From the NCBI GenBank assembly GCA_002345745.1, contig DDWQ01000011.1, positions 85,995 to 149,994 of the forward strand: a DNA stretch of 64,000 nucleotides, in the 5' to 3' direction. The stretch's first letter is position 1. Each line of letters starts with the position of its first letter. The position numbers were made by a program, and so were the translations under genes. This DNA comes from Candidatus Moranbacteria bacterium UBA2282. Its GTDB lineage: Bacteria > Patescibacteriota > Minisyncoccia > Moranbacterales > UBA2206. Shown here piece after piece: positions 5,516-21,618 of this stretch. The notes under the pieces were generated by a model. The model saw nothing but the letters and a program-made list of their open reading frames with translations, had not been told where the DNA came from and searched no databases.

Positions 5516-7024
5516 ATGAATAATCCCAAGGAAAATTTATCAGAAATAACACCACATCAATATGATTTTCAGACAGAAAAAATGTCTGTGCCAAGTCGCT
5601 TTTTTATGAGCTCAGATCTTTTGCCTGAAGAGCAAACATTTCTGCAAACAGAAGACATTGCTTCCAATAAAGATGTTTTTTTTCGCCATACTGTTGCTAT
5701 GCCAGATGTCTGTTCCAAACCAGGAAGGAAAAATGCGGCCGGAACCACTATCGTATCAGAAAAATATATTCTGCCACAGGTTAATGATTCTGATCCTAAT
5801 TGCGGTATGCGTCTAGTCAAAACAAATTTGACCGAGGACAACATTACGCCAACCGAAATTCATAAACTATTTGAATATTTGGTCGATGTTGTACCCACGA
5901 AAAAATTAATTGGAACTACAGTGCCTTTCAAAACTGTGGTGGACATTTGTCGCAAAGGGACGAGTGCTGTCATAGAACATTTTGGGGTTAAAACCAAAAA
6001 TGAATTAGAAAATACACAGTCAGGAGGAAATTTTTTCAGCAAAGAAATGACCCCGCAAGATATTTTTGATGCCATCCCGAAATTGTATTTGCATTTTGCA
6101 AAATATCGTCTTGGAATTCTTGGTGCAGCTGGTAATCATTTTCTTGATTTAGTTAAAGTCACTGAAATTATTGACCCTCTAATGGCTGAAAAATTTGGCG
6201 TAAAAAAAGGTCAGTATCTTTTTATGATACACACTGGTTCTGGCATTCTCGGACAATATACAATGTATTCCTACACTGCCAAAAAGAGAGAACATCTTTC
6301 TCAAGCAATTATGGTGAAACTTGGACAACTCACTTTCAATTCCAGAAAGAAAGATATCTACGACTCTATGCAAAAATCTATCGCCAAACATATGGCAGAT
6401 GATAATTCACTTTTGAAATATGATGCCAACGGACCGGACGGCGAACTCTATATGAATGCCCGTGCGGCCGCTTCTAACTTTGGCACCGCTAATCGTGCCG
6501 TTATCACACACAACATTTCCGAAGCTATTAAAAAAATTCTAGATCGTGATCCGGAAATGGATTTGATTTATGACATTCCACACATCTCGATTACAAAAGA
6601 AGAACATTTTAGCACGCCGGTGATGGTGCATCGCAATAACACCTCACGAGCCTTTGGACCAAGCAAGATGTCTGCTCATCCTCTTTACAAAGAAACTGGC
6701 GAGCCAGCATTTATTCCATCTTCAATGAGCACTTCAGCCTATCTTTGCGTCGGCACTGATGACAACGCTGAAAGTTTCTATTCTGCCCCGCACGGGACTG
6801 GAAAAGGTCAGAATGCTACGGAAAAGTCCATTACTAACAAAGAGGAGCTATTTGAAAAAATGAAGGAAAAAGGCGTGCATCTATATAACGCTAAATCGTC
6901 CATCGTCATGAACCAAGATTCTGCCAGATACAAAAACATCAATCAAGTAATCACTGGTGTCGAAGCTAATGGCATCGCCCACGTGGTGGCAAAAATGGAG
7001 CCTGTGGCAGTGTTAATGTATTAA
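5516..7024 (+). CDS. RtcB-family protein (RNA 3'-phosphate ligase family), divergent
   Basis: Motifs align with RtcB: AMPDVCSKPG (PDVH-like, but His is replaced by Cys), DPNCGM (DIGCGM), AAGNHFLD (GNHFIE), IHTGSGILG (HSGSRGLG), APHGTGKG (HGAGR). Confidence 0.6.
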   Translation: MNNPKENLSEITPHQYDFQTEKMSVPSRFFMSSDLLPEEQTFLQTEDIASNKDVFFRHTVAMPDVCSKPGRKNAAGTTIVSEKYILPQVNDSDPNCGMRLVKTNLTEDNITPTEIHKLFEYLVDVVPTKKLIGTTVPFKTVVDICRKGTSAVIEHFGVKTKNELENTQSGGNFFSKEMTPQDIFDAIPKLYLHFAKYRLGILGAAGNHFLDLVKVTEIIDPLMAEKFGVKKGQYLFMIHTGSGILGQYTMYSYTAKKREHLSQAIMVKLGQLTFNSRKKDIYDSMQKSIAKHMADDNSLLKYDANGPDGELYMNARAAASNFGTANRAVITHNISEAIKKILDRDPEMDLIYDIPHISITKEEHFSTPVMVHRNNTSRAFGPSKMSAHPLYKETGEPAFIPSSMSTSAYLCVGTDDNAESFYSAPHGTGKGQNATEKSITNKEELFEKMKEKGVHLYNAKSSIVMNQDSARYKNINQVITGVEANGIAHVVAKMEPVAVLMY

Positions 7025-7081
7025 TAATTGGTTTAAAGGTCTGTCACGTGCTATTATTTTGATGTAATAAAAAAATACGAT

Positions 7082-7684
7082 ATGAAAATAATTACTATTT
7101 CAGGTGTCGACGGCTCAGGAAAATCTACGCAAATTGAGCTTTTGAAAGAATATTTAGAATCGCAAAATAAGCGGGTTTTCTATTTTCACGCCATCGAGTT
7201 CGGTTTGGCTAATAAATTAGCGCGGTTCAAACATAGCTATTGTCTGCTCTGCAAAATCAAATCACCTTCTGCTACCAAAAGTGTCACCCGGGCTAATTGG
7301 CTACAAATCCAATTGCGCAAAATATTTCTAATTATTGATATTTGGCGATTTGATAAATTAGTTAAAAAATTAAACAAAGAAAATTTTGACTATCTTTTAA
7401 GCGATCGTTATTTCTACGATAGTATTATTAATATCAAATATTTATCTGAAACAACTTGGACACCCAGTGTCCAAGTGAAAAAACCAGATGTATCATTTTT
7501 TCTTGATATGAACCCGGAACAAATTATGCAACGCGAAAGAAAGCCAGATCAGGGTCTGGAATATTTACAGAAAAAAACAGCTCTATTCAAAGCTAAAATT
7601 GTTGAATGGAATATGAAAATTATTGATGCCAATCAGTCCAAAGAAGAACTTTTTAACACCATAAAAAATATTCTAGCTTTATAA
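7082..7684 (+). CDS. Thymidylate kinase (Tmk)-family P-loop kinase with an unusual insertion
   Basis: P-loop GVDGSGKST, DRYFYDS (Tmk DRY motif), and FLDMNPEQIMQRER lid-like region. A roughly 40-aa insert follows strand 2. Confidence 0.5.
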   Translation: MKIITISGVDGSGKSTQIELLKEYLESQNKRVFYFHAIEFGLANKLARFKHSYCLLCKIKSPSATKSVTRANWLQIQLRKIFLIIDIWRFDKLVKKLNKENFDYLLSDRYFYDSIINIKYLSETTWTPSVQVKKPDVSFFLDMNPEQIMQRERKPDQGLEYLQKKTALFKAKIVEWNMKIIDANQSKEELFNTIKNILAL

Positions 7685-7720: not shown

Positions 7721-9262
7721 ATGTCAAATACTATCGCCAAATCAGCCCTCTGGGTTACCATTTCCGAGATACTCTTTAATCTATCTGGATTCATTATCCA
7801 CAGCGTTCTGGGACGCGTTTTAGGGCCTGCAGACTATGGCCGCTATGGCCTAATTGTGACTTTGACCACGATGGTTATCGTACTCATCGGCAATGGCATT
7901 CCGACCGCTATGGCTAAATATATCAGTGAGATTTTTGAAACTGATCCACGGATGGTTTTGCAAATCAAAAAGCAAGCTATCAAATTGCAAATGATTATCG
8001 TTGGTGCCATCACAGTTATTTTCTATCTTTCCGCCGGACTAATTTCTAAAGCATTGGGAGATCCAACTCTGGCGCCACTCTTCCGTTTTTCAACCTTAAT
8101 CATCCCCGCTTTCGCCGCCGCATCTTTTTATTTTTCCTACTACACTGGTCTGCATAAATTTAATACTCAAGCCACACTCAAAACAATTCGCTCAGTGATG
8201 CGTATCGGCTTTGTCATTGGTATGGCTATCCTGTTTGGACTCAAAGGCTCTCTCTCTGGCTACATCATCGCGCCATTTTCTGTTTTCGCAATTGCCTTTC
8301 TGATTGATAAATTCAAAATTTCAAAAGAATTAAAATCCCACATCGCCGTAAAGACGCAAAATATTGCGTCTCTACCGAAGGAAACATCCTTTGATTGGAA
8401 AAAATTAGTCAATTATGGTTGGCAGATAGTGGTTTTTTTCCTGGCCTACGAACTACTCATCAGTATTGATTTATATATGGTCAAAGCCATTTTGCACGAC
8501 GATGTTTTAACTGGAATCTACAACGCCTCACTCACCGTCGGTCGCATTCCCTACTACATCTTCTATGCTATGACCGTCTTTCTTCTGCCAATGATGTCAA
8601 AATCAACTGCACAAAATAATCACAGTGAGACAACTAGAATCCTTGCTCAAGCACTGCGTATCATTTTAATTTTACTAGTGCCAATGATAATTCTGCTCTC
8701 AATTTTTTCTTTGCCAACTTTGGAACTGCTCTATGGTCAAAAATATTTAGCAGGAGCTGTGCCAATGTCAATTTTGGTTTTTGGCGTCGGGTTCCTCACT
8801 CTTTTCTATGTCTTGAGTTTTGCAATGAATGGTGCTGGCAAAACTAAACTTGTGATGTGGATTGCCTCGATTGGACTCGCAATAAACTCAACTTTAAATT
8901 ATTTTTTCATCCAAAAATACGGCATTCTTGGTTCAGCTATTGCCACTTCCGTTGCTTCGTTTGTCATAATGATCATTATGCTCTGTTATTTGCACCGTGA
9001 TTTCGGCGTTGCCTACAAAATCAGAAGTGTTTCATCTGTAGCATTGGCTGGACTTGGCATCTATATTTTTTCACTCATCATCCCATTGGATAAAAAATTC
9101 TTTATCATTGAATCAATCATTCTTTTGGGAGTCTATTTCGGTTCGCTTTGGCTTCTGCGGGAAATCAAAAAGGAGGACCTCACGATCCTCCAAAACCTTA
9201 TTCGCCGTAAGAAAGTCGTGGAAGTGGAACAAGAACTTTCCGGCAATGAACCCAGCGCCTAA
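7721..9262 (+). CDS. Polysaccharide biosynthesis protein, Wzx/MOP-superfamily flippase
   Basis: 513 aa, about 14 TM helices, typical Wzx/MurJ-like topology and length. Confidence 0.7.
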   Translation: MSNTIAKSALWVTISEILFNLSGFIIHSVLGRVLGPADYGRYGLIVTLTTMVIVLIGNGIPTAMAKYISEIFETDPRMVLQIKKQAIKLQMIIVGAITVIFYLSAGLISKALGDPTLAPLFRFSTLIIPAFAAASFYFSYYTGLHKFNTQATLKTIRSVMRIGFVIGMAILFGLKGSLSGYIIAPFSVFAIAFLIDKFKISKELKSHIAVKTQNIASLPKETSFDWKKLVNYGWQIVVFFLAYELLISIDLYMVKAILHDDVLTGIYNASLTVGRIPYYIFYAMTVFLLPMMSKSTAQNNHSETTRILAQALRIILILLVPMIILLSIFSLPTLELLYGQKYLAGAVPMSILVFGVGFLTLFYVLSFAMNGAGKTKLVMWIASIGLAINSTLNYFFIQKYGILGSAIATSVASFVIMIIMLCYLHRDFGVAYKIRSVSSVALAGLGIYIFSLIIPLDKKFFIIESIILLGVYFGSLWLLREIKKEDLTILQNLIRRKKVVEVEQELSGNEPSA

Positions 9263-10854
9263 TTTCTTAGAGATTTAATTAACCCAAAGCGACCGAAGGA
9301 TTTAAAATCTAAAACATTAGAATTTTTTTCTAGTGTTTTTATTTTATTGTCTTTTGATTCAGTGCTAATCAAGGTAAAGACGATGTTACCAGCGACGCTA
9401 TTTTTCTTATTTAATGGTTGCAAATGCACCCCTTGCTTTTCTGTCAAATAGATTAAACCCTTGGATGCCTTAAATAAATATTGACTGTTTCCATCCAACA
9501 AAACATCTTGCGATAAGTTATTTTGTGCAGTAATGTAGTTTGCCATCATTGCAAGCTCCCCCAGATATACATTATCAAATCCATCCATATTGCTACTTTC
9601 AGTATAATTATTCAAAGCAATAAAATTATCTCTAACCGTCCAGAGATTTAAAGCAATTAAAATTATCATAATAGTTAGCGTAATAACAACCTCATTGTTT
9701 TTAAATTTCTGTATTAAAAATTCTAGCCATAAACCTAAAAATATAAATGGTAAAAAGGTGATAATCAGAAAGTATCGCAATGAAAGTTCATAAGCGACAG
9801 GAGTCATAAAGAAAGCCATAAGCCCCGCATAGCTCAAAATTAGCCCTAGGAAGCGTTTTCTATCTTCACTAGTCTCTTTTACTAATCGCCAAATTCCCAG
9901 GCCTAGACCACCCAAAAACAACAGTCCGCCCAACAAAATATCCACAATATGACCTGCTGTTTTAACTGGCAAAAAGTTGCACTGATCCGATTCTCCTACC
10001 GATGAAATTGTAAAGGTCGTGGCAGTCATAAAGCATTCCCCCACGCGTCCAGCCTTCAGCAATAAATTTTCATCTTCTTTCTTAGTTGTCACACCGCTGA
10101 AAAGAGCTTTGACATTGTCACCGCCTGTTTTTGCTTCATTATATAACTGCGGAATATTTAAAAAAATTGAAACAACAAAAACAATCATAAAACTCTTCCA
10201 GAGATTATTTTTCTTAGGCACCTCAATTCTCAGATAAACAAAATACGCAATAGTCAGCAGTGGCATCACCACGAGCAAAAAAGTGTGCAACTGCACCCCG
10301 ACGCCTACAGCGACACCAGCCATCACTGACCAGAAGATTCGATGCTTGCCTTGAGATTCGGCTAATTGCAAAAGTGCATAGAGAAAAAGCATCGTCCAAA
10401 AAGGCGTTGAATTTGGATTCCAAGCAAAATGTGCATACTTAATGGCGTAAAAAGAAACGGCAAAGAGTGCAGTCAGTGCCAGTGCTAATTTTTCACTGAA
10501 ATATTTTTTTAGGAAAAAAAACAAAAGTGGAATAGATAGCAAAGAAAAGAATAAGTCTGGGTATGCTAATTTGTCAGGATAATTGCCAAATATTTTTCCA
10601 GCAATTATTTGAAATTCATAGAAAATTGGACCCAGACGAAAATCAGTTCCACCCGCTTTTGGTCCCAAAAGTGGCCAACCAGTTTCTCCATTGATAACTT
10701 CACCAACAAGCGTTGCATCTCGTGCTTGATCAGCGTTGAACCGCAAGCCATCGTGAAAATTGTAAGTACGCAAAAAAATTCCAACTAAAATTATTGCGAG
10801 GAGAATCCAGGTCTCTTTTTTTATATTTTTAACTATGTTTATCATTTTAACCAT
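9259..10854 (-). CDS. GT-C fold membrane glycosyltransferase (ArnT/PMT-like, GT39/GT83-type), paralog 1
   Basis: N-terminal loop RFNADQARDA...PLLGPKAGG resembles the DE-x-RYA/KPPL motifs of ArnT. It is polytopic and has paralogs at 11792..13444 and 16082..17836. Confidence 0.7.
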   Translation of the reverse strand: MVKMINIVKNIKKETWILLAIILVGIFLRTYNFHDGLRFNADQARDATLVGEVINGETGWPLLGPKAGGTDFRLGPIFYEFQIIAGKIFGNYPDKLAYPDLFFSLLSIPLLFFFLKKYFSEKLALALTALFAVSFYAIKYAHFAWNPNSTPFWTMLFLYALLQLAESQGKHRIFWSVMAGVAVGVGVQLHTFLLVVMPLLTIAYFVYLRIEVPKKNNLWKSFMIVFVVSIFLNIPQLYNEAKTGGDNVKALFSGVTTKKEDENLLLKAGRVGECFMTATTFTISSVGESDQCNFLPVKTAGHIVDILLGGLLFLGGLGLGIWRLVKETSEDRKRFLGLILSYAGLMAFFMTPVAYELSLRYFLIITFLPFIFLGLWLEFLIQKFKNNEVVITLTIMIILIALNLWTVRDNFIALNNYTESSNMDGFDNVYLGELAMMANYITAQNNLSQDVLLDGNSQYLFKASKGLIYLTEKQGVHLQPLNKKNSVAGNIVFTLISTESKDNKIKTLEKNSNVLDFKSFGRFGLIKSLRN

Positions 10855-11786
10855 AAATTTAATTTACCAATTTTCTTTTCAATCTCAAACTTTTGCGCAT
10901 ATTCACCGTGTTTTTCAATAATTATTTTCGCTTTTTTAGTACATTTATTATATTTAGCTTCCAATGATACAAAGTTTACCAAGGCCTGAGATGTCGCTAT
11001 GTTTCCAACAATAAGATAGTTTATTCCTTCAACATTTTCAAACCTATATCCTGGCTCATGTCCTGATATGACAAGCACTAAATTTTTATATTTTTTAAAA
11101 AAATTATGAACATCTATGCCATTGGAGAGATTTTTAAAATTAGAAACAAGTTCTCCATCAATCTTAGATGGAATTGAACTATGATGAGAAAAAATAATAG
11201 TCGGCTTTTCTGTATTAAGCACATCTTCAAGCCACTCAAATTCTGCCTTACTTACATATCCATTCACATAATAATCTGGACCAAAATCAGAACCATCTAT
11301 TTTGAAATTAGTATCCATTAATACAAATCTCCAATCACCTAAATCTATATAACTATGATTATCATTCATCGCAAGCATATCTCTTAACTCTTCTTTATTT
11401 AGATCACGAAGATCATGATTTCCAAAAACATATTCTCTCCTTGTTTCTAGTTTTGAGAAAATTGCATTTATCTTTTCAAACTGCTCAATAGTAGTTTTTT
11501 TCTTAGACAATGAACTCTCCACCATATCTCCACCCATAATCACAATTTCTGGATTAAATTTTTCGTTAAAAAAAGTCACAGCCTTTTCTAATGCATCAGG
11601 TGAATCCTTGGGTAGTTTATTGCCAACATTGTTTTTATACCCATATTCTAAATCAGTCACAAAACCAAATTTTAAATCAGTTTCAGTATTAATTTTATTC
11701 CAATATGTAGATCCCGCTAGAATAATAATACTTACGCAAATATACAATAAAATTTTATTAGATTCATTATTTGAATATTTTTTCAT
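10842..11786 (-). CDS. Membrane-anchored metallophosphoesterase (calcineurin-like), copy 1
   Basis: N-terminal TM anchor; motifs GGDMVE, GNHDLR, SGHEPG. Overlaps the upstream GT-C gene by 13 bp. Confidence 0.7.
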   Translation of the reverse strand: MKKYSNNESNKILLYICVSIIILAGSTYWNKINTETDLKFGFVTDLEYGYKNNVGNKLPKDSPDALEKAVTFFNEKFNPEIVIMGGDMVESSLSKKKTTIEQFEKINAIFSKLETRREYVFGNHDLRDLNKEELRDMLAMNDNHSYIDLGDWRFVLMDTNFKIDGSDFGPDYYVNGYVSKAEFEWLEDVLNTEKPTIIFSHHSSIPSKIDGELVSNFKNLSNGIDVHNFFKKYKNLVLVISGHEPGYRFENVEGINYLIVGNIATSQALVNFVSLEAKYNKCTKKAKIIIEKHGEYAQKFEIEKKIGKLNLWLK

Positions 11787-11791
11787 ACGCC

Positions 11792-13444
11792 TTATTTTAA
11801 ATTACTATTTTTTAAAATATAAACGTCCACTGAGTCGAAATGTTCACCGGCAACTACTTGATAATCACGAATTGATTTTGAAAAGCCATCTGTTTTGTTT
11901 TTAATATAAACAAATTTTTGCCCCGATGGTATTTTTTCCTTTACTTTGGTAATATCAACTTCAGCAACCTCCAGTCCTTGTCGATAAAGCATATAGTCGA
12001 TGGACCCAAAATACCTATCCAAATACTTACCCTCCCCACTCATATAAATAATCTTTGAGCCAAGATTATTTTCTCCCAAAAAATCGACTACATTTTCCAC
12101 CCAACCTAAATTTGAATTATTAATATTGTTATCAAGTCCCTTCTTATAAAAATAATATTTTTTAATGTCAGTTTGCAATAAAACAATGGCCATAATTACT
12201 GCTAAAATTAGCGCTAATATCTTTCCATTTTTTCTAAATTTTTGCTGGAAAAATTGCAATAAGAAACCTAGGAATATAAACGGGATAAAAAATAAAATAT
12301 TAAAATAACTAACAGAAATAGAAGAAATGACGGGTATAAAGACTAGAAGACCAATCGCATTAAAAAGACCCGCAACTAACAAGAATGTTTTTCTATTTCT
12401 ATCTTTTTCTTTAAGAAAATTAATAACAAGAATTGCATAGCCCAAGACATAAAAGATAAAAATAGATACAAAAGTTGAAATATAGACGACTTTTCTTAAT
12501 GTGCGATTTTTAATTTCTCCATACAATTCTTTCGAGCCATTTTTAACATCAATACTCACGCCATCGTAACACTTATCCAAAACTGGAGCATATAGAATTA
12601 TATTTGCATTTGATTTTGCTTGACAAATAATAACTAACGCTGCATTTTTAACTAAATTATTTTCATTACCTCCTTTATCAATTGTTCCTAGTATAAAATT
12701 TCTTGTATTTTCTCCCCGGGTATTAATCTCACTGATAATTTGTGTAACATTTACAGTAACAGCAATTAGGATAATGATTATAAAATATTGCAAATATTGC
12801 ATCTTGCTTCTTTTGAAAATATACGCAGAAATGACCAATGTAAATATAGGCATAATAACCATTAAAGTTGTGTGCAATTGAACTCCGATTCCCAATGATA
12901 ATCCTACTAAAATTGACCACCACAGATAATTTCTATTTTTAAAATTAGTAATTTTAAAAATAGAAAGCAAAAACAATAAAACAAAAAATGGAGCCAAATT
13001 TGGATTTGATGAAAAACGAGATGCTTCAATAAAGAAATATGAAAAACTCATTACGCCTGTAATGCTCAGTGAGATATGTTTACTAAAATATTCTCTCAAA
13101 AACAAAAAGAGCAGTGGTATAGCTAAGATTGAAAATATAAGACTTGGGTATGCCATTTTGTCTGGATAATTGCCAAATATCTTCGCAGAAAGAAGCGAAA
13201 AATAATAATATGCTGGTCCAAGATGAAAACTTGTTCCGCCAGCTAACGGACCAAGCAATGGGATTGCTGTTTTCCCATCCAACACATCACTAATAATAAA
13301 TGCATCGCGTGATTGATCCATACTAAAGCGCAACCAATCATGAAAATGATAGGTACGCAGAAAAATACCAACTACTATTATCACCAAAAGAATCCAAATA
13401 TGGATTGGTATTTTTTTTATTTTATTTTGCAAATACTTTAACAT
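11792..13444 (-). CDS. GT-C fold membrane glycosyltransferase (ArnT/PMT-like), paralog 2
   Basis: RFSMDQSRDA...PLLGPLAGG N-terminal loop. Co-linear similarity to 9259..10854. Confidence 0.7.
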   Translation of the reverse strand: MLKYLQNKIKKIPIHIWILLVIIVVGIFLRTYHFHDWLRFSMDQSRDAFIISDVLDGKTAIPLLGPLAGGTSFHLGPAYYYFSLLSAKIFGNYPDKMAYPSLIFSILAIPLLFLFLREYFSKHISLSITGVMSFSYFFIEASRFSSNPNLAPFFVLLFLLSIFKITNFKNRNYLWWSILVGLSLGIGVQLHTTLMVIMPIFTLVISAYIFKRSKMQYLQYFIIIILIAVTVNVTQIISEINTRGENTRNFILGTIDKGGNENNLVKNAALVIICQAKSNANIILYAPVLDKCYDGVSIDVKNGSKELYGEIKNRTLRKVVYISTFVSIFIFYVLGYAILVINFLKEKDRNRKTFLLVAGLFNAIGLLVFIPVISSISVSYFNILFFIPFIFLGFLLQFFQQKFRKNGKILALILAVIMAIVLLQTDIKKYYFYKKGLDNNINNSNLGWVENVVDFLGENNLGSKIIYMSGEGKYLDRYFGSIDYMLYRQGLEVAEVDITKVKEKIPSGQKFVYIKNKTDGFSKSIRDYQVVAGEHFDSVDVYILKNSNLK

Positions 13445-13453
13445 AAAATTTTC

Positions 13454-14323
13454 CTATTTAGCAAATTTGTAATCCACCTGATTATTTTCTAAGTTTATTG
13501 TGGCATACGCACCTTCACTACCCTCTCTTGTCAAAGCTGATTCACCATAATATTCAATTCCATTATATTCTTTTCGCCACGACATATGCCAATGTCCAGA
13601 CAGAACCATCTTTACATTATTACTTTCACTCAAAATGCCTTCCAACTCCGAAAATCTTTCCAAAACATCCTGGCTTAAACCAAAAAATTCACTCTTTAAA
13701 TCATAAGTATTGATGGCTTCAGTGTCTGAATCGAAAACTGGAATATGCATAGCAACAATAATTTCTTTATCAGTTTTCACTGCTTCTCGCAACCAAGCCA
13801 ATTGCTCAGGATTAACTCCTCCTTTATAGTCATATTCGCTATTCAAATATTCCGTAGTGTCCATGACGATAATCCTAGTGTTGCCATAATCATTGTAATA
13901 ATAATCTTCTACACCCAGAATACCCATCACTTCGTCATTGTCGTGATTGCCCCTTACCCAAAGTACCTCCATTTTTTTCTCATCTGCGATTCTCTTTAAA
14001 TCTCTTGCGTAATTATCATCGCCAGAATTAGTGTTGTCTCCAGTGGCAATGACTACATCAACACCCTCATCTTTCATAGCATCCAAAGTTTTTGGCAGAT
14101 ATTCCATATATTTTTTTGGATAAATAATTCCACTATCCACATCTCGTTTTTTGAAACGGTCAGCATGAATATCTGTCACCCAACCAATTTTTGTTTCACT
14201 TTGTATTAAATAGTGTAACCCATATTTTTTTACCAAAACAAAAAAAATACTGACCGCTAGAATAGCCACCATAATAACAATTAGCCACTTCTTTTTAGGT
14301 ATTCTTTTTAAATATTTTTTCAT
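13454..14323 (-). CDS. Membrane-anchored metallophosphoesterase (calcineurin-like), copy 2
   Basis: Motifs DIHAD, ATGDNTN, RGNHDN, SGHWH. N-terminal TM anchor. Confidence 0.8.
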   Translation of the reverse strand: MKKYLKRIPKKKWLIVIMVAILAVSIFFVLVKKYGLHYLIQSETKIGWVTDIHADRFKKRDVDSGIIYPKKYMEYLPKTLDAMKDEGVDVVIATGDNTNSGDDNYARDLKRIADEKKMEVLWVRGNHDNDEVMGILGVEDYYYNDYGNTRIIVMDTTEYLNSEYDYKGGVNPEQLAWLREAVKTDKEIIVAMHIPVFDSDTEAINTYDLKSEFFGLSQDVLERFSELEGILSESNNVKMVLSGHWHMSWRKEYNGIEYYGESALTREGSEGAYATINLENNQVDYKFAK

Positions 14324-16072
14324 TTAAGGTTTTCCTAAATCAGTAATTTGATAGGCCACGATATAATCATCTTCATATTTGCTATCATACTGTATATATT
14401 TTTCAATAAATCTCTCCGCATTAACCAAAACTTTCTCTTTCACAAATTTTTTGCTAATTGTTATATAGCCTATGTTGTTTTCATTTAATATCTTATTAGC
14501 CTGAGAAAAATATTCTTCTGGATTTGGAAATTTTGTATCTGGATCATTACCCTTGGGCAACGTATATAGCAATTGCTTGATTACGGGCGTGTTCTGTTGC
14601 ATATCAAATTGATCCTTGATTTTCCTAGCGAGTGGCATACCATTCACCAATTCCTTGTGATGCACTGTTTGCAATATCATTTCATAACTAGCAAAGTTAT
14701 AACTCGTACTACCAGGAATTTCTAGTAGTTTATAGCTTCCACCGTCAGCGCCAATTTTATTATAGAACTTAGAATATCCCATAGAATTCATTTCGATTGG
14801 GATAACAGAAAACTCGAGCATAATCAATAGAACAATTCCTGATGCTAGCAATTTTTTATTATTAGCATATTTTTTAAATATATAAACCAATGCATATCCG
14901 GCTAAAATAGAAATTCCAATAAGAGCAAAGACAAACAATCTTCCAGTGGTTCGGATATTTTCATAGAATGGAACAAGTTTATATAAAAGATAATATGGCA
15001 AGTAAATTTTTACTTTAAAAATAGAAAAATATGGTCCCATCGCTAAAATACAAAATACCAGCGTTTCCACGACCCAAAAATTCAAACTACTGGAAATTGA
15101 ACGCAATTTTTTCCCTGCTGTTTCTTTTTTCAGGAGCAAAAAACCGATGACAATTATCGTTATAACACTAAATCCTACGAAATATACATTATCACCAGAA
15201 CCAATCAACTTGCCAAAAAAATTCCAAATAGAATGTGCCTCCGGAGGTGAAATCGGATCTAACAAATTCATTGAATATTTTGAGGCCTTACCTATTCCCG
15301 CATCCAAAAAATTATTTTCCGAAGTTGCAACTTTTAACAATGGCTTAAATATTGTTAGCGCTAAGGTGACTAAAAATAAAAGAGATGAAACAGCATATAA
15401 CCATAATTTCTTATTTTTGAGAATTTCTCTTTCCGTGATTGCTTTATAAACAATGAAAAATACTGCAAAAATAACCGTGAAAGCCAGCAGCTGATGCTCA
15501 GTTATCGCAATTAAAAGTGCTGTACCAATCAAAGCGATAAAATATCTTAATTTTAATTTTTCAAAAAATTTAAACAGGAATAAAATGAAAAAAGGCAACA
15601 ATTCCTGATGCATTGTTCCGATATTTGTCGAAAGAGCTTGATGAAAATGAAAAGGCGAAAAAGCAAAGATAACCCCCGCAATGAAAGCCACTGTCTTATC
15701 TTTAATAAAATATAAAGTCAGTAAATACATTCCAACTCCGCTTAAAACGAAACTAGCCAGAAAAAGAAAATTATATGCAAAAAAATTGTTAGTGAAGAAA
15801 GCTAATATTGAATACGGCAAAAAGACATTGATTTGAAAAGTCTCCGCTAAATATTTCAGCCCAACTGAGAATCCACTCGCCTGCATAATTCCGACCTGAC
15901 TACTAATATTTCCAAAAGCCTGATAGACATCACTGCCCCACATTGGAACCATCGAATTTATATTAAAGATGACTGGATAGGTAAATATAACCACAAGCAT
16001 AGCATACAATCCAGTGATTGTTGTTATTGGATAGCACCTAAAAAAATCCAGTAGCAGTTTTTTAATTTTCAT
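14324..16072 (-). CDS. Polytopic membrane protein; possibly a YfhO/GT-C-like glycosyltransferase
   Basis: 582 aa with at least 12 TM helices. Lies inside the GT-C/phosphoesterase operon with no intergenic gaps. Confidence 0.45.
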   Translation of the reverse strand: MKIKKLLLDFFRCYPITTITGLYAMLVVIFTYPVIFNINSMVPMWGSDVYQAFGNISSQVGIMQASGFSVGLKYLAETFQINVFLPYSILAFFTNNFFAYNFLFLASFVLSGVGMYLLTLYFIKDKTVAFIAGVIFAFSPFHFHQALSTNIGTMHQELLPFFILFLFKFFEKLKLRYFIALIGTALLIAITEHQLLAFTVIFAVFFIVYKAITEREILKNKKLWLYAVSSLLFLVTLALTIFKPLLKVATSENNFLDAGIGKASKYSMNLLDPISPPEAHSIWNFFGKLIGSGDNVYFVGFSVITIIVIGFLLLKKETAGKKLRSISSSLNFWVVETLVFCILAMGPYFSIFKVKIYLPYYLLYKLVPFYENIRTTGRLFVFALIGISILAGYALVYIFKKYANNKKLLASGIVLLIMLEFSVIPIEMNSMGYSKFYNKIGADGGSYKLLEIPGSTSYNFASYEMILQTVHHKELVNGMPLARKIKDQFDMQQNTPVIKQLLYTLPKGNDPDTKFPNPEEYFSQANKILNENNIGYITISKKFVKEKVLVNAERFIEKYIQYDSKYEDDYIVAYQITDLGKP

Positions 16073-16081
16073 TATTTTAGA

Positions 16082-17836
16082 TTATTTTACATTAACCTTT
16101 GTTCCAAAAACATCTTTCCAAAAAAGCCTGTCTTCACTACCACTATCTTTTTTGACTTTAAACTCTGCTGAAACAGCACGTGTGGGAAAATTAATCTCTG
16201 CCACCAACAACTGTCCAACTTTTTCTCTAGAAAGAACATCGAAATCCAATTTATATTTATCTCCAACACTATCCAATCCATCTTTTTTATCAGGCACAAT
16301 CGCAAAATATTGCGCATTCGGATCTTTATTGATTTTTAAAGTTGAAAAATTAAAATTTGGATCGTGCTTTTCTTCCAACAGATATTGAATTGGTCGCTCA
16401 TGCTCTGGTTTAACGTAGTAATAGATATTAGCTCCTTCCTTATGCTTAATATAAATAAAATCGGCTACGCGTTGTAATTCACCTAATGTCACACCATCCT
16501 TTGCTTTGAGAATCAAAGTTCTTTTGACTTTTATTCTGGAATTTTGCGATGCGGACTGCTCGCTAAACCAAGCGTATGTTCCATACATATTGGAAATTAT
16601 AATCGCCATTGTAACCAACAGTGCAACAAAAAACATTTTTTTGCCATAACGATTTTCCAGAAACTCAAAAAGCAAACCCAGAAAAATAAATGGCACTGCG
16701 AACACAACAATAAAAAAACGCGGACGCAATTGAAAAGAAATCGGAATTGTCAGAATAAAAAACACACCAATCCAAATCATTAACAAAACAAGAAAATTTC
16801 TCTTTTTCTCATCTTTAATTTTTATAAAATTCCAAACCGACAAAAATAGACCTGCCATTAAAATCAATCCCGTTACTAAAACTGAGCCAGTGTTGTCTCC
16901 CAAGTCTCCTGCGTAACAATCTGATGTTGTTATTAAACAATAGTAATTTAAATTTTCCTCTAGGTTCTTGCCTATTTTTTCTATCAAAGGCTTATTAGTT
17001 GGTTTTGACCCTAAAGCCTCAATAAAATTATTCGCATTCTGACCTTTTTCAAAAACATCGCTTATAATAACTGGTGCATAGATAAACACAAAAATAATCG
17101 TCACAATCGCAAAATATTTAGAAAAATTCAATAAAGTTGTTTTTTGAAAATATTTTTTCCAGGATTCCTTGCTCCAAGGCTTTAGGCTATATAAAATTAC
17201 TAGTCCTGATATGCCCAATAAGCTGAAAAAGCCAAAAAAATGTAATTGTGAACCAATAGCTAACGCAAATGTCCATAATGCTATCCACCATTTTTTCTTT
17301 TTGGCATCTTCCTCGTTAATAAATTTCAATAAACCGAAAAAGGTTAATAGTAAGAAAAATTGCAAAGAATTCGGATTCCAAGCAAAACGTGAGTATTGGA
17401 TAATTATGAAGGAAAAAGCATACATCGCCATAATCATCAATGCGTGCTTTTGGGAAAAATATAGCCGACTGAAAAAATACACCAGTGCGATTGCCGCCAA
17501 TGAAAAAAATAAATCCGGATAAGCCATTACATATGGCTCAGTCGAATGAGCAATCAAAGCAGCTAGATATTGAAAATAGTAGTAAACTGGACCTAGACGC
17601 AAAAAACCACTTTCTAGTGTTGTTGCTCCGGCACGTGGCCCTAGGAGTGGCAAATAACCTGGATCAGCTATGGCTTTGCTAATCAGCATTGCATCCCTCG
17701 CTTGATCCATTTTGAAATATAACCAATCTTCGTGTTTATAAATTCTGACTGCAAAAGCAGCAATCATAATCGCCAAAATAAGCATTGGAACCACAAATTT
17801 TCTTTGTGCTAATGTTTCTATAAAATATTTTTTCAT
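16082..17836 (-). CDS. GT-C fold membrane glycosyltransferase (ArnT/PMT-like), paralog 3
   Basis: YFKMDQARDA...PLLGPRAGA N-terminal loop. First gene of the minus-strand operon. Confidence 0.7.
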   Translation of the reverse strand: MKKYFIETLAQRKFVVPMLILAIMIAAFAVRIYKHEDWLYFKMDQARDAMLISKAIADPGYLPLLGPRAGATTLESGFLRLGPVYYYFQYLAALIAHSTEPYVMAYPDLFFSLAAIALVYFFSRLYFSQKHALMIMAMYAFSFIIIQYSRFAWNPNSLQFFLLLTFFGLLKFINEEDAKKKKWWIALWTFALAIGSQLHFFGFFSLLGISGLVILYSLKPWSKESWKKYFQKTTLLNFSKYFAIVTIIFVFIYAPVIISDVFEKGQNANNFIEALGSKPTNKPLIEKIGKNLEENLNYYCLITTSDCYAGDLGDNTGSVLVTGLILMAGLFLSVWNFIKIKDEKKRNFLVLLMIWIGVFFILTIPISFQLRPRFFIVVFAVPFIFLGLLFEFLENRYGKKMFFVALLVTMAIIISNMYGTYAWFSEQSASQNSRIKVKRTLILKAKDGVTLGELQRVADFIYIKHKEGANIYYYVKPEHERPIQYLLEEKHDPNFNFSTLKINKDPNAQYFAIVPDKKDGLDSVGDKYKLDFDVLSREKVGQLLVAEINFPTRAVSAEFKVKKDSGSEDRLFWKDVFGTKVNVK

Positions 17837-17883
17837 ATAGCCATATTTTACCTTATTTACAGCTTGCGGTCAAAGCAAATTCG

Positions 17884-17913
17884 TTAGACTTATCTTGTGA
17901 CTTATTGTATAAT
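17884..17913 (+). promoter_or_regulatory. Sigma70-like promoter (TTAGAC, 18-nt spacer, TATAAT)
   Basis: The TATAAT at 17908-17913 overlaps the TTG start given by the ORF track, which implies the real start is the downstream ATG at 17947. Confidence 0.45.
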
Positions 17914-17946
17914 GAAAACCATAAATCAAGTCTAATATTCTATTTT

Positions 17947-19797
17947 ATGAACCAAAAAAATGTCCTTACGCTCACTATTATTTTTGCTATTTTTGCTATA
18001 AATATTTTTTTTGGCTTTCCGCGTATTTCCGAATATTCTTCCGTAGACGAACCCTATTGGACATATGATCGCACACCTGATTTTTGGAATGCTATTACTG
18101 AGAGAAAGTGGAAAAAAACTGATATAAACGACAAGCCAGGTATAACTGTAGCAGAAATCTCTGGGATTGGGCTTAGCAGCGGAATACAACCCTTAGAATA
18201 TAAATCTGTTCGTCAAGAAGCAAAAACCCCCCAAACTGTTGCTGAAATTATTAAAATAAATTTTTTTCTTCGACTACCTATCTATCTAGCGGGACTTCTT
18301 CTGCTTCTGACATTCTATTTCTTTCTGAAAAAACTTTTCAATCGCCCCATTGCCCTCCTATCTTTAACTTTCATTGGACTTTCTCCAATTATTCTGGGCA
18401 TTTCGCTCATAATTAACCCGGACTCGCTTCTCTGGGGATTTCTGCCACTCTCAATTATTGGTTTTTTAATTTACCAACGAGAAAATCAAAAAAAATATTT
18501 AGTTTTTTCAGGAATTTTATTAGGACTCGCATTGCTTACTAAATATGTAGCCAATATTTTATATGTATATCTATTGGGACTCCTTTTTCTGGAATATATC
18601 TATGCTGACAAAGGTACTCTGAATTTTGCTGTCTATCTCAAAAAAGCACTCTTAAATTATGCAATATTAATTATTATTTCTCTCGCCGTTTTTTTTATTC
18701 TTTATCCAAGTTGTTGGGTTAAGCCAGAAATGCTCCTTAAGGGAACCATCCTTAGTGCAGCTTTCGAAACAACCTGGCCAATTTTTGCCGGATTTATTGG
18801 ACTATTACTAGCTGATTTATTTTTCTTAAAAAGTCGCATTTCATCTTGGATTATGAATTTTCTTTCCAAATATAGTCAGCACTTTAAACTAGCAATTGGA
18901 GGTTTGTTTTTAGTAGGAATTATTTTTGTTTTGCTTAATACTTATACTAGTATGCAAATCTTTGACTTTGAAGGAGAGATGGCTTCCCCTAAGGGTGACA
19001 ATATACTTGCATTGTCGCATATTTTGAAAATTACAACTTCTGATTTATACGCACTTATTTTCGGACTCACTCCAATTGTTTTTATTTTTTTCGTCTGGTC
19101 AATTATTAAAAATACTTTTCAAACAGGCAAGATAACAAAAGAAGCTGCCGTTGTTTCCTATTTTTTGATTTTTATTTTACTATATTACATTGCTTCAACT
19201 ATAAATCAGGTTACAGCAACCGTCCGCTACCAAATTACTATCTATCCCCTAGCCTCAATTATTGCAGCCATTGGAGCATATCAATTCAGTCAATTAGAAA
19301 AAATAAAGAAATATTTTGATAATGGAATCTTCTATATTATAATCATCTTAATATCTGTCTCAAGCCTTTATTTATCCAGTCCGTTCTTTTTCAATTATTC
19401 CTCAGTCCTTTTGCCAGAAAAATATATTCTCAATCTAAAAGATATGGGCGATGGCAGTTTTGAAGCGGCGAAGTTTCTAAATCAACTGCCTGATGCAAAA
19501 AATCTTGTCATTTGGTCAGATAAAGGTGCAGTTTGTGAAACCTTTCTTGGAAAATGTAAAACCAGTTTTAATGAGAATGACACATTAACTTTTGATTTCG
19601 ACTACTTTGTTGTTTCCACTGGCAGAAAATCACGTTCTTTGAAACTAGAAAAGTCCACTGATTTCAAATATGAAATAGATTTTCCAAAATTGTATATGCC
19701 AAATATTGAGGATGCAGATTTTGAAATTAATTTTGGTGACAACCCAAATAATTTTGTAAGAGTAATTAAGACAGAAAAAATTATCCAGAATAATTAA
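17947..19797 (+). CDS. Polytopic membrane protein; likely a GT-C-type glycosyltransferase of a different subfamily
   Basis: VDEPYWTYDR loop after TM1 resembles the DE-x-x-Y motif of GT-C. About 12 TM helices. Start moved from 17905 (TTG) to the ATG at 17947 (MNQKNVL). Confidence 0.5.
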   Translation: MNQKNVLTLTIIFAIFAINIFFGFPRISEYSSVDEPYWTYDRTPDFWNAITERKWKKTDINDKPGITVAEISGIGLSSGIQPLEYKSVRQEAKTPQTVAEIIKINFFLRLPIYLAGLLLLLTFYFFLKKLFNRPIALLSLTFIGLSPIILGISLIINPDSLLWGFLPLSIIGFLIYQRENQKKYLVFSGILLGLALLTKYVANILYVYLLGLLFLEYIYADKGTLNFAVYLKKALLNYAILIIISLAVFFILYPSCWVKPEMLLKGTILSAAFETTWPIFAGFIGLLLADLFFLKSRISSWIMNFLSKYSQHFKLAIGGLFLVGIIFVLLNTYTSMQIFDFEGEMASPKGDNILALSHILKITTSDLYALIFGLTPIVFIFFVWSIIKNTFQTGKITKEAAVVSYFLIFILLYYIASTINQVTATVRYQITIYPLASIIAAIGAYQFSQLEKIKKYFDNGIFYIIIILISVSSLYLSSPFFFNYSSVLLPEKYILNLKDMGDGSFEAAKFLNQLPDAKNLVIWSDKGAVCETFLGKCKTSFNENDTLTFDFDYFVVSTGRKSRSLKLEKSTDFKYEIDFPKLYMPNIEDADFEINFGDNPNNFVRVIKTEKIIQNN

Positions 19798-19809: not shown

Positions 19810-20751
19810 CTAGATGTTTTTTCGACGCACAACATACATCGGACGATTGATAACCTCACTGTGAATATTAGCAACATACATTGCCAAAAGACCTATTGAA
19901 ATCAGAATTATACCTACAAGAAAAAGAATAAGAATAGCTAAATTTTCTGCATCAGAAAAAGTTGAAGCAAAATTCGTACGAAAAACATATTTACCCAACA
20001 AAATATAGAAGCCTGCTACACCAGAAATTGTTGTTATAAAGATACCAAGTGATCCAGCCAGTTTCAACGGCACAAGGCTAAGTGACATAAAGCTATTAAC
20101 CGCAAGTTTAAATAATTTCCAAAAACCGTAGCTTGCTGTTCCATATAATCTTTCGTTAGCATTAAAATAAACACAAGTTCGCTGAAATCCCAGCCAATCA
20201 ATGAGAGCTCTGGTCATGCGATTTGTTTCCGTGAAACGATTAAATTCGGCAATAACAACCTTATCAATCAAGCGAAAATCAGTAGCACTCGGTATGATAT
20301 GCACATCTGCTATTTGATTTATAATTTTATAAAATATTTTTGAACCAATTTTCTTAATTAATTTATCACTTTTATTTTCTTTTCGCACACCGACGACAAC
20401 ATCATTACCCTCTTCCCATTTGGCAATAAATTCAGGAATAAGCTCTACTGGATGTTGCATATCTGCGTCCAACATAATACAAGCATCAGAGACACAATTA
20501 TTTATTCCAGCGGTAGTCGCCAGCTCCTTTCCAAAATTCCTAGAAAAATCAATGTATTTAACTGTCATATCCGATTTGGATAATTTCTCAATTTCAAAGA
20601 TTGTGTTGTCCGTGCTGCCGTCATTAATAAACAATATACTGAATTCGTATGACTTTCCCACAGAAACAAAGACCTTTTTAAGGGCATTATATATAGGAGC
20701 TATATTCTTCTCCTCATTATACGCTGGAATGACTATGGAAATTGACTTCAT
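19810..20751 (-). CDS. GT2 polyprenol-phosphate glycosyltransferase (GtrB/ArnC/DPM1-like)
   Basis: SIVIPAYNEEKNI, NDGSTDNT, DADMQH motifs. Two C-terminal TM helices. Confidence 0.85.
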   Translation of the reverse strand: MKSISIVIPAYNEEKNIAPIYNALKKVFVSVGKSYEFSILFINDGSTDNTIFEIEKLSKSDMTVKYIDFSRNFGKELATTAGINNCVSDACIMLDADMQHPVELIPEFIAKWEEGNDVVVGVRKENKSDKLIKKIGSKIFYKIINQIADVHIIPSATDFRLIDKVVIAEFNRFTETNRMTRALIDWLGFQRTCVYFNANERLYGTASYGFWKLFKLAVNSFMSLSLVPLKLAGSLGIFITTISGVAGFYILLGKYVFRTNFASTFSDAENLAILILFLVGIILISIGLLAMYVANIHSEVINRPMYVVRRKNI

Positions 20752-20898: not shown

Positions 20899-21618
20899 AT
20901 GCTTAAAAAAAATAACAGCACTCTGATAATTTCCGTAGACGACTTTGGTATTAGCAAGTTAGCTAATGAAAATATTCTTCGACTCGCGAGATATGGCAAA
21001 ATTGACCGAGTAGAAATAATGATGAGTCAAAATATCATGCCTAGCCACGTCACGGAACTCCTAGCCTCTGGCGTTGCACTGGACATTCATCTGCATCTAG
21101 CCAAAGGTAGCTTGGATTTATGGCAAGATAATTTTAGAAAATCAAGTCCTGGAACAATACAAAGAATTTTTGCGTTTCTCTTCAGTTATTTTTTTGGTAA
21201 AAACAGACCCAAAGAAATTGCTAAAGAGTGGGAAGAACAAATACAGGAATTTAAAAGACTTTTTCAAAAAAATCCGGATGGGATAAGCTCTCATGAACAT
21301 ATTCATTTTTTCCCTTCCTATTTTTCGCTAGTCTTAAAACTTGCTAAAAAAAATAATATTCCGTATGTGCGTTTTGGAAAATATTGGGTCAAAGAAAAAA
21401 ATCCCGCTTGTCTGATTCTAAATTTTTTAAAAAAAATTAATAGTTTAATTTTTAATGAAACTAGATTTGACTCGACTGACCTGATGATTAGTTTCAACTG
21501 GATAACTGATTTTGATAAGTTTTTACAAAATTGTCCAAGCAATAAAAAAATTGAGCTTGTTTTTCATCCGGAGAAAACAAATGAATTTGAATTTCTAAAA
21601 AAACTTTCTTTAGAATAA
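20899..21618 (+). CDS. YdjC/ChbG-family carbohydrate deacetylase
   Basis: N-terminal ISVDDFGIS matches the YdjC NADDFG motif. About 240 aa. Confidence 0.65.
   Translation: MLKKNNSTLIISVDDFGISKLANENILRLARYGKIDRVEIMMSQNIMPSHVTELLASGVALDIHLHLAKGSLDLWQDNFRKSSPGTIQRIFAFLFSYFFGKNRPKEIAKEWEEQIQEFKRLFQKNPDGISSHEHIHFFPSYFSLVLKLAKKNNIPYVRFGKYWVKEKNPACLILNFLKKINSLIFNETRFDSTDLMISFNWITDFDKFLQNCPSNKKIELVFHPEKTNEFEFLKKLSLE

Follow-up and report, generated by a model that had tools for sequence, protein, structure and literature searches.

In the 64-kb stretch of Candidatus Moranbacteria bacterium UBA2282 DNA analysed here (below, the window), a minus-strand operon at positions 9259-17836 encodes two membrane-anchored metallophosphoesterases (MPEs), MPE1 and MPE2, interleaved with membrane glycosyltransferases of the GT-C type. 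Arrays combining the same kinds of genes were found in other bacteria of the candidate phyla radiation (CPR). The reading that we favour, with a probability of about 0.45, is that the region serves the extracytoplasmic stage of cell-surface glycan assembly in a CPR bacterium of the Parcubacteria/Moraniibacteriota type, and that the two MPEs would cleave polyprenyl-linked intermediates there. The region had been singled out from its DNA letters, in what we call the original prediction, as tandemly duplicated two-gene modules, each made of a GT-C and a phosphoesterase.

Results

A six-gene operon with four GT-C-fold proteins

All six open reading frames (ORFs) of the predicted minus-strand operon were found where they had been placed, tightly packed with spacings of -13 to +9 nt (9, 0, 9, 5 and -13 nt, in operon order). 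The first gene, GTC3 (16082-17836), encodes a 584-aa protein of the PMT-like GT-C class. It is followed by the gene for a 582-aa polytopic protein of the DUF6311 family (14324-16072), by MPE2 (13454-14323, 289 aa), which has canonical metallophosphoesterase motifs behind an N-terminal signal-anchor, and by GTC2 (11792-13444, 550 aa), a PMT_2 GT-C paralog. MPE1 (10842-11786, 314 aa), a variant metallophosphoesterase (DxEY / GD..E / GNHD / SHH / GHEP), also carries an N-terminal signal-anchor, and its end overlaps by 13 nt the start of the last gene, GTC1 (9259-10854, 531 aa), another PMT_2 GT-C paralog.

The family calls made for the GT-Cs and phosphoesterases held, as all scores were above the Pfam gathering cutoffs. 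With PMT_2 (PF13231, cutoff 26.1 bits), scores of 31.0, 42.1 and 26.7 bits were obtained for GTC1, GTC2 and GTC3 respectively, and GTC3 also matched PMT (PF02366) with 37.8 bits for a cutoff of 22.7. The three proteins are 29-35% identical to each other, GTC1 and GTC2 being the closest pair (35%). Hydropathy plots gave 8-9 peaks for GTC1-GTC3, with at least 8 transmembrane (TM) segments in GTC3. The first-loop motif of ArnT/PMT type that had been noticed in all three, DQxRD...PLLGP.AG, lies directly after TM1. It reads ADQARDA...WPLLGPKAGG in GTC1, MDQSRDA...IPLLGPLAGG in GTC2 and MDQARDA...LPLLGPRAGA in GTC3, and across 32 family members of other loci, the conservation of D42, Q43, R45 and D46 is 94% or more. 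The label "ArnT-like" was not supported, as no ArnT-type NCBIfam model matched at E<=0.01 and no equivalog match was obtained; the sole NCBIfam match of these GT-Cs, TIGR03663, scored 19-23 bits, far under its cutoff of 126. In a distance tree, the GT-Cs fell into three old classes, each with members in several loci.

The 582-aa protein is predicted with high confidence, from its modelled fold, to be a fourth GT-C-fold protein of the operon, a point that had been overlooked previously. PF19830 (DUF6311) is a precomputed match for this protein and some of its homologs, our own hmmscan at E<=0.01 returned no Pfam match, and a sequence-profile search of the family against the PDB gave nothing meaningful, so that the identification came from fold comparison alone. 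An AlphaFold2 model was built on 32 homologs (pLDDT 88.4) and compared to the PDB with Foldseek. The top 19 matches were all GT-C enzymes (DPY19, STT3/PglB/AglB, AftA, ALG12, ALG9), with E-values of 4.5e-6 to 1.5e-2 and TM-scores of 0.39-0.55. At least 90% of the 32 homologs keep the first-loop aspartate D48. The DUF6311 family is widespread in CPR, with 145 matches, many of them ~720-aa forms with a C-terminal extension; no literature on it was found.

Two phosphoesterases that differ in their metal site

Both phosphoesterases matched Metallophos (PF00149, cutoff 21.5 bits), MPE2 with 61.8 bits and MPE1 with 43.2 bits. Complete calcineurin-like motif sets had been attributed to both. For MPE2 this is correct: all five motifs are canonical (DIH / GD / GNHD / H / GHWH), and they are conserved in 64 homologs. 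MPE1 departs from the set at two places, with DLE(Y) instead of DxH as motif I and GHEP instead of GHxH as motif V, and metal site 1 has thereby lost its two histidine ligands. The catalytic GNHD and the full set of second-site ligands are retained.

As judged from its homologs, this deviation is a conserved trait of the MPE1 family and not an error. The combination DxE / SHH / GHxP was found in all 23 loci of the MPE1 clade, and residues D45, E47, D87, N123, H124, D125, H201 and H243 are invariant across 29 MPE1 homologs sharing 33-75% identity. In an exhaustive profile search among 1.84 billion representatives, the DxE(Y) state was limited to approximately the top 20 clusters.

Proteins of ~700 aa (P0223, P0227, P0228, P0231 and P0234) combine an MPE1-like domain with one of ~400 aa, for which ISOA1-3_C gave a weak match. 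The MPE1-like domains of such fusions have degenerate motifs (GNQD, GARD, GGAE, GN..), and the sequences suggest that the fusions are a pseudo-enzyme offshoot of the MPE1 clade. The ~400-aa domain is also encoded as a separate gene beside MPE1 in one locus (L028, 5035-6231; related loci are cited by our own numbers), and probably in another (L031).

The AlphaFold2 model of MPE1 (pLDDT 91.2) has the beta-sandwich fold of phosphoesterases, with a TM helix at residues 8-32, then two residues, then a strand at 35-44 that ends at motif I. Its best Foldseek matches were 2nxf, Rv0805 and GpdQ, with a probability of 1.00 and E ~1e-13; the first is a zebrafish dimetal phosphatase, which we take to be an ADPRibase-Mn-like enzyme. 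GAP50 and Vps29 were also among the structural matches. For MPE2, Rv0805 is the closest solved structure by sequence. From these comparisons, both MPEs would belong to the class III phosphodiesterase (PDE)/GpdQ/ADPRibase-Mn structural group, a fold type that cleaves phosphodiester or pyrophosphate bonds. Scores with the NCBIfam models for SpdA (48.1 and 39.8 bits, cutoff 400) and CpdA (35.4 bits, cutoff 225) were far under the equivalog cutoffs, and the window MPEs are therefore not members of the CpdA or SpdA families.

Both phosphoesterases are predicted to face outward

The N-terminal anchors announced for both phosphoesterases are present, each as one hydrophobic helix with a stretch rich in lysine and arginine (K/R) ahead of it; in MPE2 the TM segment spans residues 13-31 and is preceded by 7 K/R. 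To apply the positive-inside rule, K/R were counted in the 15 residues before and the 15 residues after the helix. In the MPE1 family the means were 4.4 before and 1.9 after, with more K/R before the helix in 24 proteins and more after it in 1. In the MPE2 family they were 3.6 and 2.6, with more before in 36 proteins and more after in 16. The N-terminus of one MPE2-type homolog resembles a Sec signal. Given the positive-inside rule and the K/R-rich N-terminus, an N-in/C-out topology is predicted for the window proteins and for their families. This agrees with the outside location proposed earlier, and would put the phosphoesterase domains on the same side of the membrane as the first (catalytic) loops of the GT-Cs.

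Since its TM helix runs almost straight into the motif-I strand, MPE1 would hold its active site near the membrane surface, within a few residues of it, and MPE2 within about a dozen. Such a short tether would favour lipid-linked substrates.

MPE and GT-C genes are linked in other CPR loci

Neighbourhoods were counted over de-duplicated loci, with genes within 300 bp taken as adjacent and shared ancestry not factored in. A GT-C-fold gene was adjacent to 12 of the 17 MPE2-family genes, in either gene order, and to 4 of the 19 MPE1-family genes. One more MPE1 gene (L026) adjoins an unclassified 12-TM GT-C-like protein. Seven MPE1 genes are in GT4-rich clusters, beside an epimerase/dehydratase, and family members also occur in Wzy-type and other glycan clusters.

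The array GTC3-MPE2-GTC-MPE1-GTC was found in three further loci. In a Parcubacteria metagenome-assembled genome (MAG; L011/L015), the MPE identities are 71% and 62%, and the DUF6311 gene is absent. The second is in a Moraniibacteriota MAG (L020), at 45% MPE1 identity, and the third (L014) is an expanded array with three MPEs. In five loci (L009, L039, L043, L044, L119) an MPE2-type gene starts the array, directly upstream of a GTC3-class gene and divergent from a GTC4-class gene (GTC4 is described below), and in L012 it comes after a GT2 donor synthase. Altogether, an MPE2-type gene lies beside a GTC3-class gene in eleven loci (the window, L015, L014, L020, L009, L012, L039, L043, L044, L119 and L120), with one gene between the two in the window and in L012. 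Start and stop codons of MPE and GT-C genes overlap in L009 and L011. The divergent arrangement with a GTC4-type gene is kept in nine loci (L009, L014, L015, L038, L039, L043, L044, L118, L119). In L006, an MPE2 homolog stands beside Wzy, Wzz-like and GT4 genes.

One locus (L120, 4672-6354, JGI 3300056844 Ga0438325_0000004) encodes a 560-aa fusion in which an MPE2-type domain comes last, after a rhamnosyltransferase-like GT2, a basic stretch and a TM segment. This fusion, which may be an artefact of assembly or of a frameshift, has intact Metallophos motifs, and the next gene encodes a GT-C of the GTC3 class.

Adjacency is thus not unique to this genome, where uniqueness would have refuted the original prediction: it recurs in contigs of the Parcubacteria group and of Moraniibacteriota, with MPE identities down to ~37-45% and varying gene order. 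As an imperfect control, we took the loci that remained from the metagenome scan with the MPE2 alignment, i.e. those around generic MPEs (24-30% identity), loci L038-L051 being used as relatives. In these 66 control loci (517 kb), mostly non-CPR, no match to the GT-C family of the window was found.

Labels of the closest homologs point to the Parcubacteria group, Moraniibacteriota or Pacebacteria. MPE1 together with glycan genes was also found on contigs titled "uncultured Bdellovibrionales bacterium" (L017, L018, L024, L025, L029, L030, L032); these are probably MAGs of Patescibacteria under a wrong taxonomic name.

MPE1 and MPE2 belong to different lineages

MPE1 and MPE2 are detectably homologous, with 25% identity and E = 6e-9. 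Measured with the MPE1-family profile against a library of 1.84 billion proteins, MPE2 scored 76 bits, and the 150th best cluster (clustering at 50% identity) scored 106 bits. With more than 150 other clusters at or above 106 bits, MPE2 is outranked by many MPE lineages in closeness to MPE1. Arrays were found with 0, 1, 2 or 3 MPEs. The arrangement has the look of a glycan locus of variable content that has recruited MPEs from two distinct lineages.

The operon lies in a surface-glycan island

Upstream of the operon and divergent from it, GTC4 (17905-19797, plus strand) encodes a GT-C of a different class (PMT_2 45.3 bits, PMT 32.0 bits), with no similarity to GTC1-3 by BLASTP. This gene, which the original prediction had overlooked, starts at an ATG at 17947 in the public gene call (616 aa), and brings the number of GT-C-fold genes from four in the operon to five. 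Between GTC3 and GTC4, in a divergent region of 68-110 bp common to both, a promoter-like site precedes the GTC3 start (17845-17873, minus strand, TTGACC-17-TAAAAT, 10/12 matches). At the other end, 68 nt past the GTC1 stop, a terminator-like hairpin (9172-9191, minus strand, 8-bp stem, 5 GC pairs) is followed by a T-run, TTTTTGATTT. Both sites are weak evidence, the totals of the promoter and terminator consensus scans not exceeding those of shuffled controls. Convergent with the operon, a Wzx/MurJ-type flippase gene (7721-9262, plus strand; Polysacc_synt 80.2 bits, MurJ 49.1 bits) extends at its end 4 nt into the GTC1 stop region. A Wzx-type flippase is also found beside the array in L015, L020, L026, L044, L118 and L119.

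The whole 64-kb window (GC ~33%) is a surface-glycan island. It holds several GT4 and GT2 genes, a WsaF-like rhamnosyltransferase, a Wzm/Wzt ABC transporter, GtrA and the Wzx-type flippase, as well as genes for a UDP-glucose dehydrogenase, nucleotidyltransferases, epimerases and RmlD-like proteins. Next to GTC4 is a PgfS/ArnC-like GT2 (19810-20751, minus strand; Glycos_transf_2 99.9 bits, PgfS 224.9 and ArnC 133 bits, the last two under the equivalog cutoffs), a candidate donor-making enzyme for the GT-Cs by its sequence. A YdjC-family carbohydrate deacetylase follows (20899-21618, plus strand, YdjC 95.4 bits), then a flippase-like protein (21627-22571, minus strand) that matches LPG_synthase_TM (PF03706, 137.3 bits) and TIGR00374 (96.7 bits, cutoff 43.2), and is a candidate flippase for polyprenyl-P-sugars. 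A second ArnC/PgfS-like GT2 lies at 25391-26353 (minus strand; ArnC 160.1 and PgfS 145.7 bits, under the equivalog cutoffs), and an AglJ/PpgS-like GT2 that resembles polyprenyl-phosphate-sugar synthases at 19-867. A putative use of polyprenyl-phosphate-sugar donors by the GT-Cs has for context three synthase-like GT2 genes and a flippase-like gene in the window, which is consistent with several lipid-linked donors feeding the five GT-C-fold enzymes.

GTC4, the neighbouring GT2 and the YdjC protein (PMT_2 45.3, PgfS 224.9 and YdjC 95.4 bits) are co-located as an amino-sugar trio of the NaxD/Lgm/Arn type. In the FlmF2-NaxD-FlmK and LgmABC systems, a HexNAc linked to undecaprenyl phosphate (Und-P) is deacetylated, and the amino sugar is then transferred by a GT-C; NaxD itself deacetylates Und-P-GalNAc before transfer to lipid A (PMC11279074). 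The organism studied here probably has no lipid A.

Several other genes of the window deserve mention. A 626-aa polytopic protein with DUF6541/DUF1616 matches (2119-3999, plus strand), for which synteny was found in L015, L020, L026 and L119, is possibly, from its sequence, another GT-C-like membrane enzyme. Genes for an RtcB RNA ligase and a thymidylate kinase (5516-7684, plus strand) separate the Wzx flippase gene from the GT4/DUF6541 genes, an odd neighbourhood that is nonetheless stable (L015, L020, L026, L044, L118, L119). Two IS200-like Y1 transposase ORFs (30287-30916, 209 aa, and 48211-48849, 212 aa, both on the minus strand) were considered as borders of a mobile unit and rejected, being 44% identical and having no flanking DNA repeats in common. 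A low-GC segment (32-40 kb, GC ~0.29) lies between them, and contains a second flippase-like gene (33517-35682, minus strand, 721 aa), with an N-terminal LPG_synthase_TM and ~400 residues that have no Pfam match. An 833-aa protein (45328-47829, minus strand) with a beta-helix region and an LCAT/Lipase_2/PGAP1-like alpha/beta-hydrolase domain may be a secreted lipase or an acyl-remodelling enzyme. No match came from scanning the window for transfer RNAs or with Rfam.

Discussion

A role for the phosphoesterases at the outer leaflet

What was observed is the identity of the genes, their folds, the state of the motifs and the conservation of the neighbourhood; from this we infer topology, substrate and reaction as follows. 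The GT2 enzymes, of which the window has three, would load sugars onto polyprenyl phosphate at the cytoplasmic face. The flippase-like protein and the Wzx-type flippase would carry the lipid-linked sugars or glycans outward, and the five GT-C-fold enzymes, four from the operon and one divergent, would transfer sugars to an acceptor outside the membrane. The two outward-facing, single-anchor MPEs would hydrolyse the phosphodiester or diphosphate bond of a polyprenyl-linked intermediate at the outer leaflet. The likeliest effect would be to free polyprenyl phosphate, or the glycan, from a polyprenyl-P-sugar or a polyprenyl-PP-glycan, which would make the MPEs an outside-facing counterpart of UpsH/UshA-type carrier-lipid liberation. 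MPE2, with its canonical site, would be the partner of the PMT-like GTC3 class. For MPE1, another intermediate is the probable substrate, because its first metal site is remodelled while GNHD and the second-site ligands are kept.

We rank this carrier-lipid reading first because of the diesterase fold, the short tether, the outward orientation and the GT2-TM-MPE fusion, and also because polyprenyl-linked intermediates are common to GT-C arrays, Wzy-type clusters and GT4 clusters, i.e. to the various contexts of these genes. Recycling of polyprenyl (di)phosphate had been put forward in the original prediction; it gains a precedent within the superfamily in UpsH (YpbG) of B. subtilis, and for the MPEs described here it would hold by analogy. 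UpsH, the subject of the only related work that the literature search gave, is genetically required to free Und-P from trapped teichoic or teichuronic acid intermediates linked to undecaprenyl diphosphate (Und-PP) (Roney & Rudner 2025, PMC11898649). Like the window MPEs, it is a membrane-associated member of the metallophosphoesterase superfamily tied to polyprenyl-linked glycopolymer pathways, and it needs its catalytic GHxH histidines, a motif that MPE2 carries (PMC11898649). The two cases also differ. UpsH, known from genetic evidence only, is a COG1408 protein of the SigM stress regulon (PMC11898649), whereas the window MPEs are encoded in GT-C operons and best match CpdA/SpdA/Rv0805/GpdQ-type models, which sets them apart from UpsH as it is described.

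Several points weigh against the carrier-lipid reading. When a GT-C uses a polyprenyl-P-sugar donor, the reaction itself liberates polyprenyl-P, and no phosphoesterase is called for. For both MPE families the substrate is purely what we infer, and the positive-inside signal is modest across the MPE2 family. The existence of fused MPE1 relatives without catalytic motifs indicates a clade prone to non-catalytic roles. Five MPE1-family loci (L016-L019, L027) have no recognisable glycan genes, and close MPE2 homologs (53-56% identity) stand alone in unrelated contexts in L007 and L013. One syntenic array (L118, GCA_027338925.1, DAHWRT010000023.1, 7230-15583), with Wzx, Tmk and RtcB genes around it as in the window, is devoid of MPEs, its members being GTC3, DUF6311 and three genes of PMT_2 type. 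This marks the MPEs as accessory, and not as the obligate half of a module. Finally, the precedent of UpsH is partial, since it acts at the cytoplasmic face (PMC11898649) and the window MPEs are predicted to face outward.

Alternative readings

The reading that we place second, and hold to be unlikely, is one of glycan remodelling or "uncovering": between GT-C steps, the MPEs would trim a phosphodiester-linked substituent, or turn a diester into a monoester, on the glycan being built or on its acceptor. It fits the alternation of MPE and GT-C genes in the operon, the tie of each MPE family to particular GT-C classes, and the diesterase type of the fold, and the presence of MPEs in some syntenic arrays and their absence from others is what accessory, structure-modifying enzymes would show. 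ArnT/FlmK-type GT-Cs make sugar-phosphate diesters, and a NaxD-like trio is encoded next door. A published precedent also exists, as the luminal MPEs Cdc1, Ted1 and PGAP5 (MPPE1) remove ethanolamine phosphate from the mannoses of glycosylphosphatidylinositol (GPI) after the action of GT-C mannosyltransferases (PMC4214784). These enzymes resemble the window MPEs in being membrane-bound, on the non-cytoplasmic side, and in acting on a lipid-linked glycan made by GT-Cs (PMC4214784), but they are eukaryotic, of another architecture, and no sequence or structural link was found, so that the likeness is one of logic and not of family. Against remodelling, the scan of the window ORFs gave no transferase for a phospho-substituent (sulfatase/LtaS/EptA-like, LicD, CDP-alcohol transferase), nor any of the ethanolamine-phosphate type. 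The very short tether suits lipid-linked substrates better than polymer-linked ones, and the MPE1 family is also present in GT4 clusters without the GT-C family.

Third, and less probable again, the MPEs might be generic scavengers, i.e. outward nucleotide, cyclic-nucleotide or glycerophosphodiester PDEs of a nutrient-dependent CPR cell, placed in the locus only by the co-regulation of envelope genes or by inherited synteny. Their closest characterised relatives, Rv0805, CpdA, SpdA and GpdQ, would agree with this, and so would the stand-alone homologs beside unrelated genes (L007, L013, L016-L019) and the MPE-free array of L118. The scores of the CpdA and SpdA models (35-48 bits for cutoffs of 225-400) speak against it, as does the recurrence of the adjacency with different gene orders and partners at MPE identities down to ~37-45%. 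Scavenging would also leave aside the overlap of MPE and GT-C coding regions, the fusion protein of L120, and the independent tie of the MPE1 family to GT4 clusters. The relatives themselves differ from the window MPEs: Rv0805, CpdA, SpdA, Enterobacter GpdQ and 2nxf are the closest structures or profiles and have the same core fold and GD/GNHD motifs, but these enzymes are soluble or peripheral and act on nucleotides or small diesters, whereas the window MPEs are membrane-anchored and MPE1 is without both metal-1 histidines.

A bolder version of remodelling, which we find quite improbable, is an obligatory alternating chemistry on the outer side of the membrane: ArnT-like GT-Cs would add sugars to phosphates, after which the tethered diesterases would lay bare phosphate or hydroxyl groups as acceptors for the GT-C that follows, in a bacterial and CPR-specific phospho-remodelling of the GPI type. 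MPE1 would then be a new subclass with a carboxylate-rich (D/E) metal site 1.

Little credence is given to the idea that MPE1 serves the GT-C machinery without catalysis, or as a binding protein, in the manner of the pseudo-phosphatases Vps29 and GAP50, and that MPE2 is the sole active enzyme. The loss of both metal-site-1 histidines across the clade, the fused ~700-aa relatives with degenerate GNHD and GHxH, and the presence of GAP50 and Vps29 among the structural matches would favour it. The eight residues invariant over 29 sequences as distant as 33% identity are however the pattern expected of a working active site, and the catalytic histidine and second-site ligands are all kept. An extra conserved histidine, H202 of the SHH motif, could stand in for the lost ligand, and in many related families GHxE replaces GHxH.

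The origin of the operon by tandem duplication of one MPE and GT-C unit, as originally predicted, would account for the homology of MPE1 and MPE2 and for the position of GTC1 and GTC2, the most similar GT-C pair, each after an MPE gene, but we rejected a recent event of this kind and consider the scenario very improbable, as the two MPEs are not nearest relatives, the recurrent neighbour of MPE2 is the GTC3 class and not GTC2, arrays with 0 to 3 MPEs exist, and each of the GT-C classes (GTC1, GTC2, GTC3), like each MPE family, is an old lineage of its own, with orthologs in several other CPR loci.

Comparison with known glycosylation systems

The components of the region are very common families, and the logic of GT2 synthase, flippase and GT-C is textbook. 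It is that of GtrA/GtrB/GtrC, CsbB-GtcA-YfhO, PgfS/PgfM and ArnC/D/E/F/T with FlmF2-NaxD-FlmK. The window goes beyond these three-component systems in having five arrayed GT-C-fold genes, interleaved with two MPEs; to our knowledge, and as far as the literature found shows, such systems have one GT-C per module and no phosphoesterase. GT-C paralogs acting in series on a single extracytoplasmic glycan, with polyprenyl-P-sugar donors, are found in the mycobacterial Emb/Aft/PimE pathways of arabinan and mannan synthesis and in the lumenal ALG3/9/12/6/8/10 pathway of the endoplasmic reticulum, and AftA, ALG9 and ALG12 were among the structural matches of the 582-aa protein. We know of no dedicated metallophosphoesterase in these multi-GT-C pathways. 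The phosphatase of mycobacterial donor synthesis, Rv3807c, is a PAP2 enzyme.

A literature search found no description of the pairing of Metallophos with PMT_2, nor of GT-Cs in CPR, and for glycosyltransferases of Patescibacteria it gave only papers on fungal PMTs. New to the literature searched are the conserved association of predicted outward-facing, tethered MPEs with CPR GT-C arrays, the linkage of MPE2 with the GTC3 class, the MPE1 clade with its rewired metal site 1, and the assignment of DUF6311 to the GT-C fold.

The cell envelopes of CPR bacteria are almost unstudied, though it is through their surfaces that the attachment-dependent lifestyle of these bacteria is mediated. The link between MPEs and GT-C arrays points to a step missing in textbook polyprenyl-dependent glycosylation, which could be the release or salvage of the carrier lipid or a phospho-remodelling of the glycan. 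It also offers two small enzymes with soluble domains, one of them with a systematically rewired metal site, that can be produced and assayed without cultivation of the organism. If it is true that the MPEs free polyprenyl phosphate at the outer leaflet, the recently proposed idea of an active liberation of carrier lipid by hydrolases (UpsH/UshA) would extend across the membrane.

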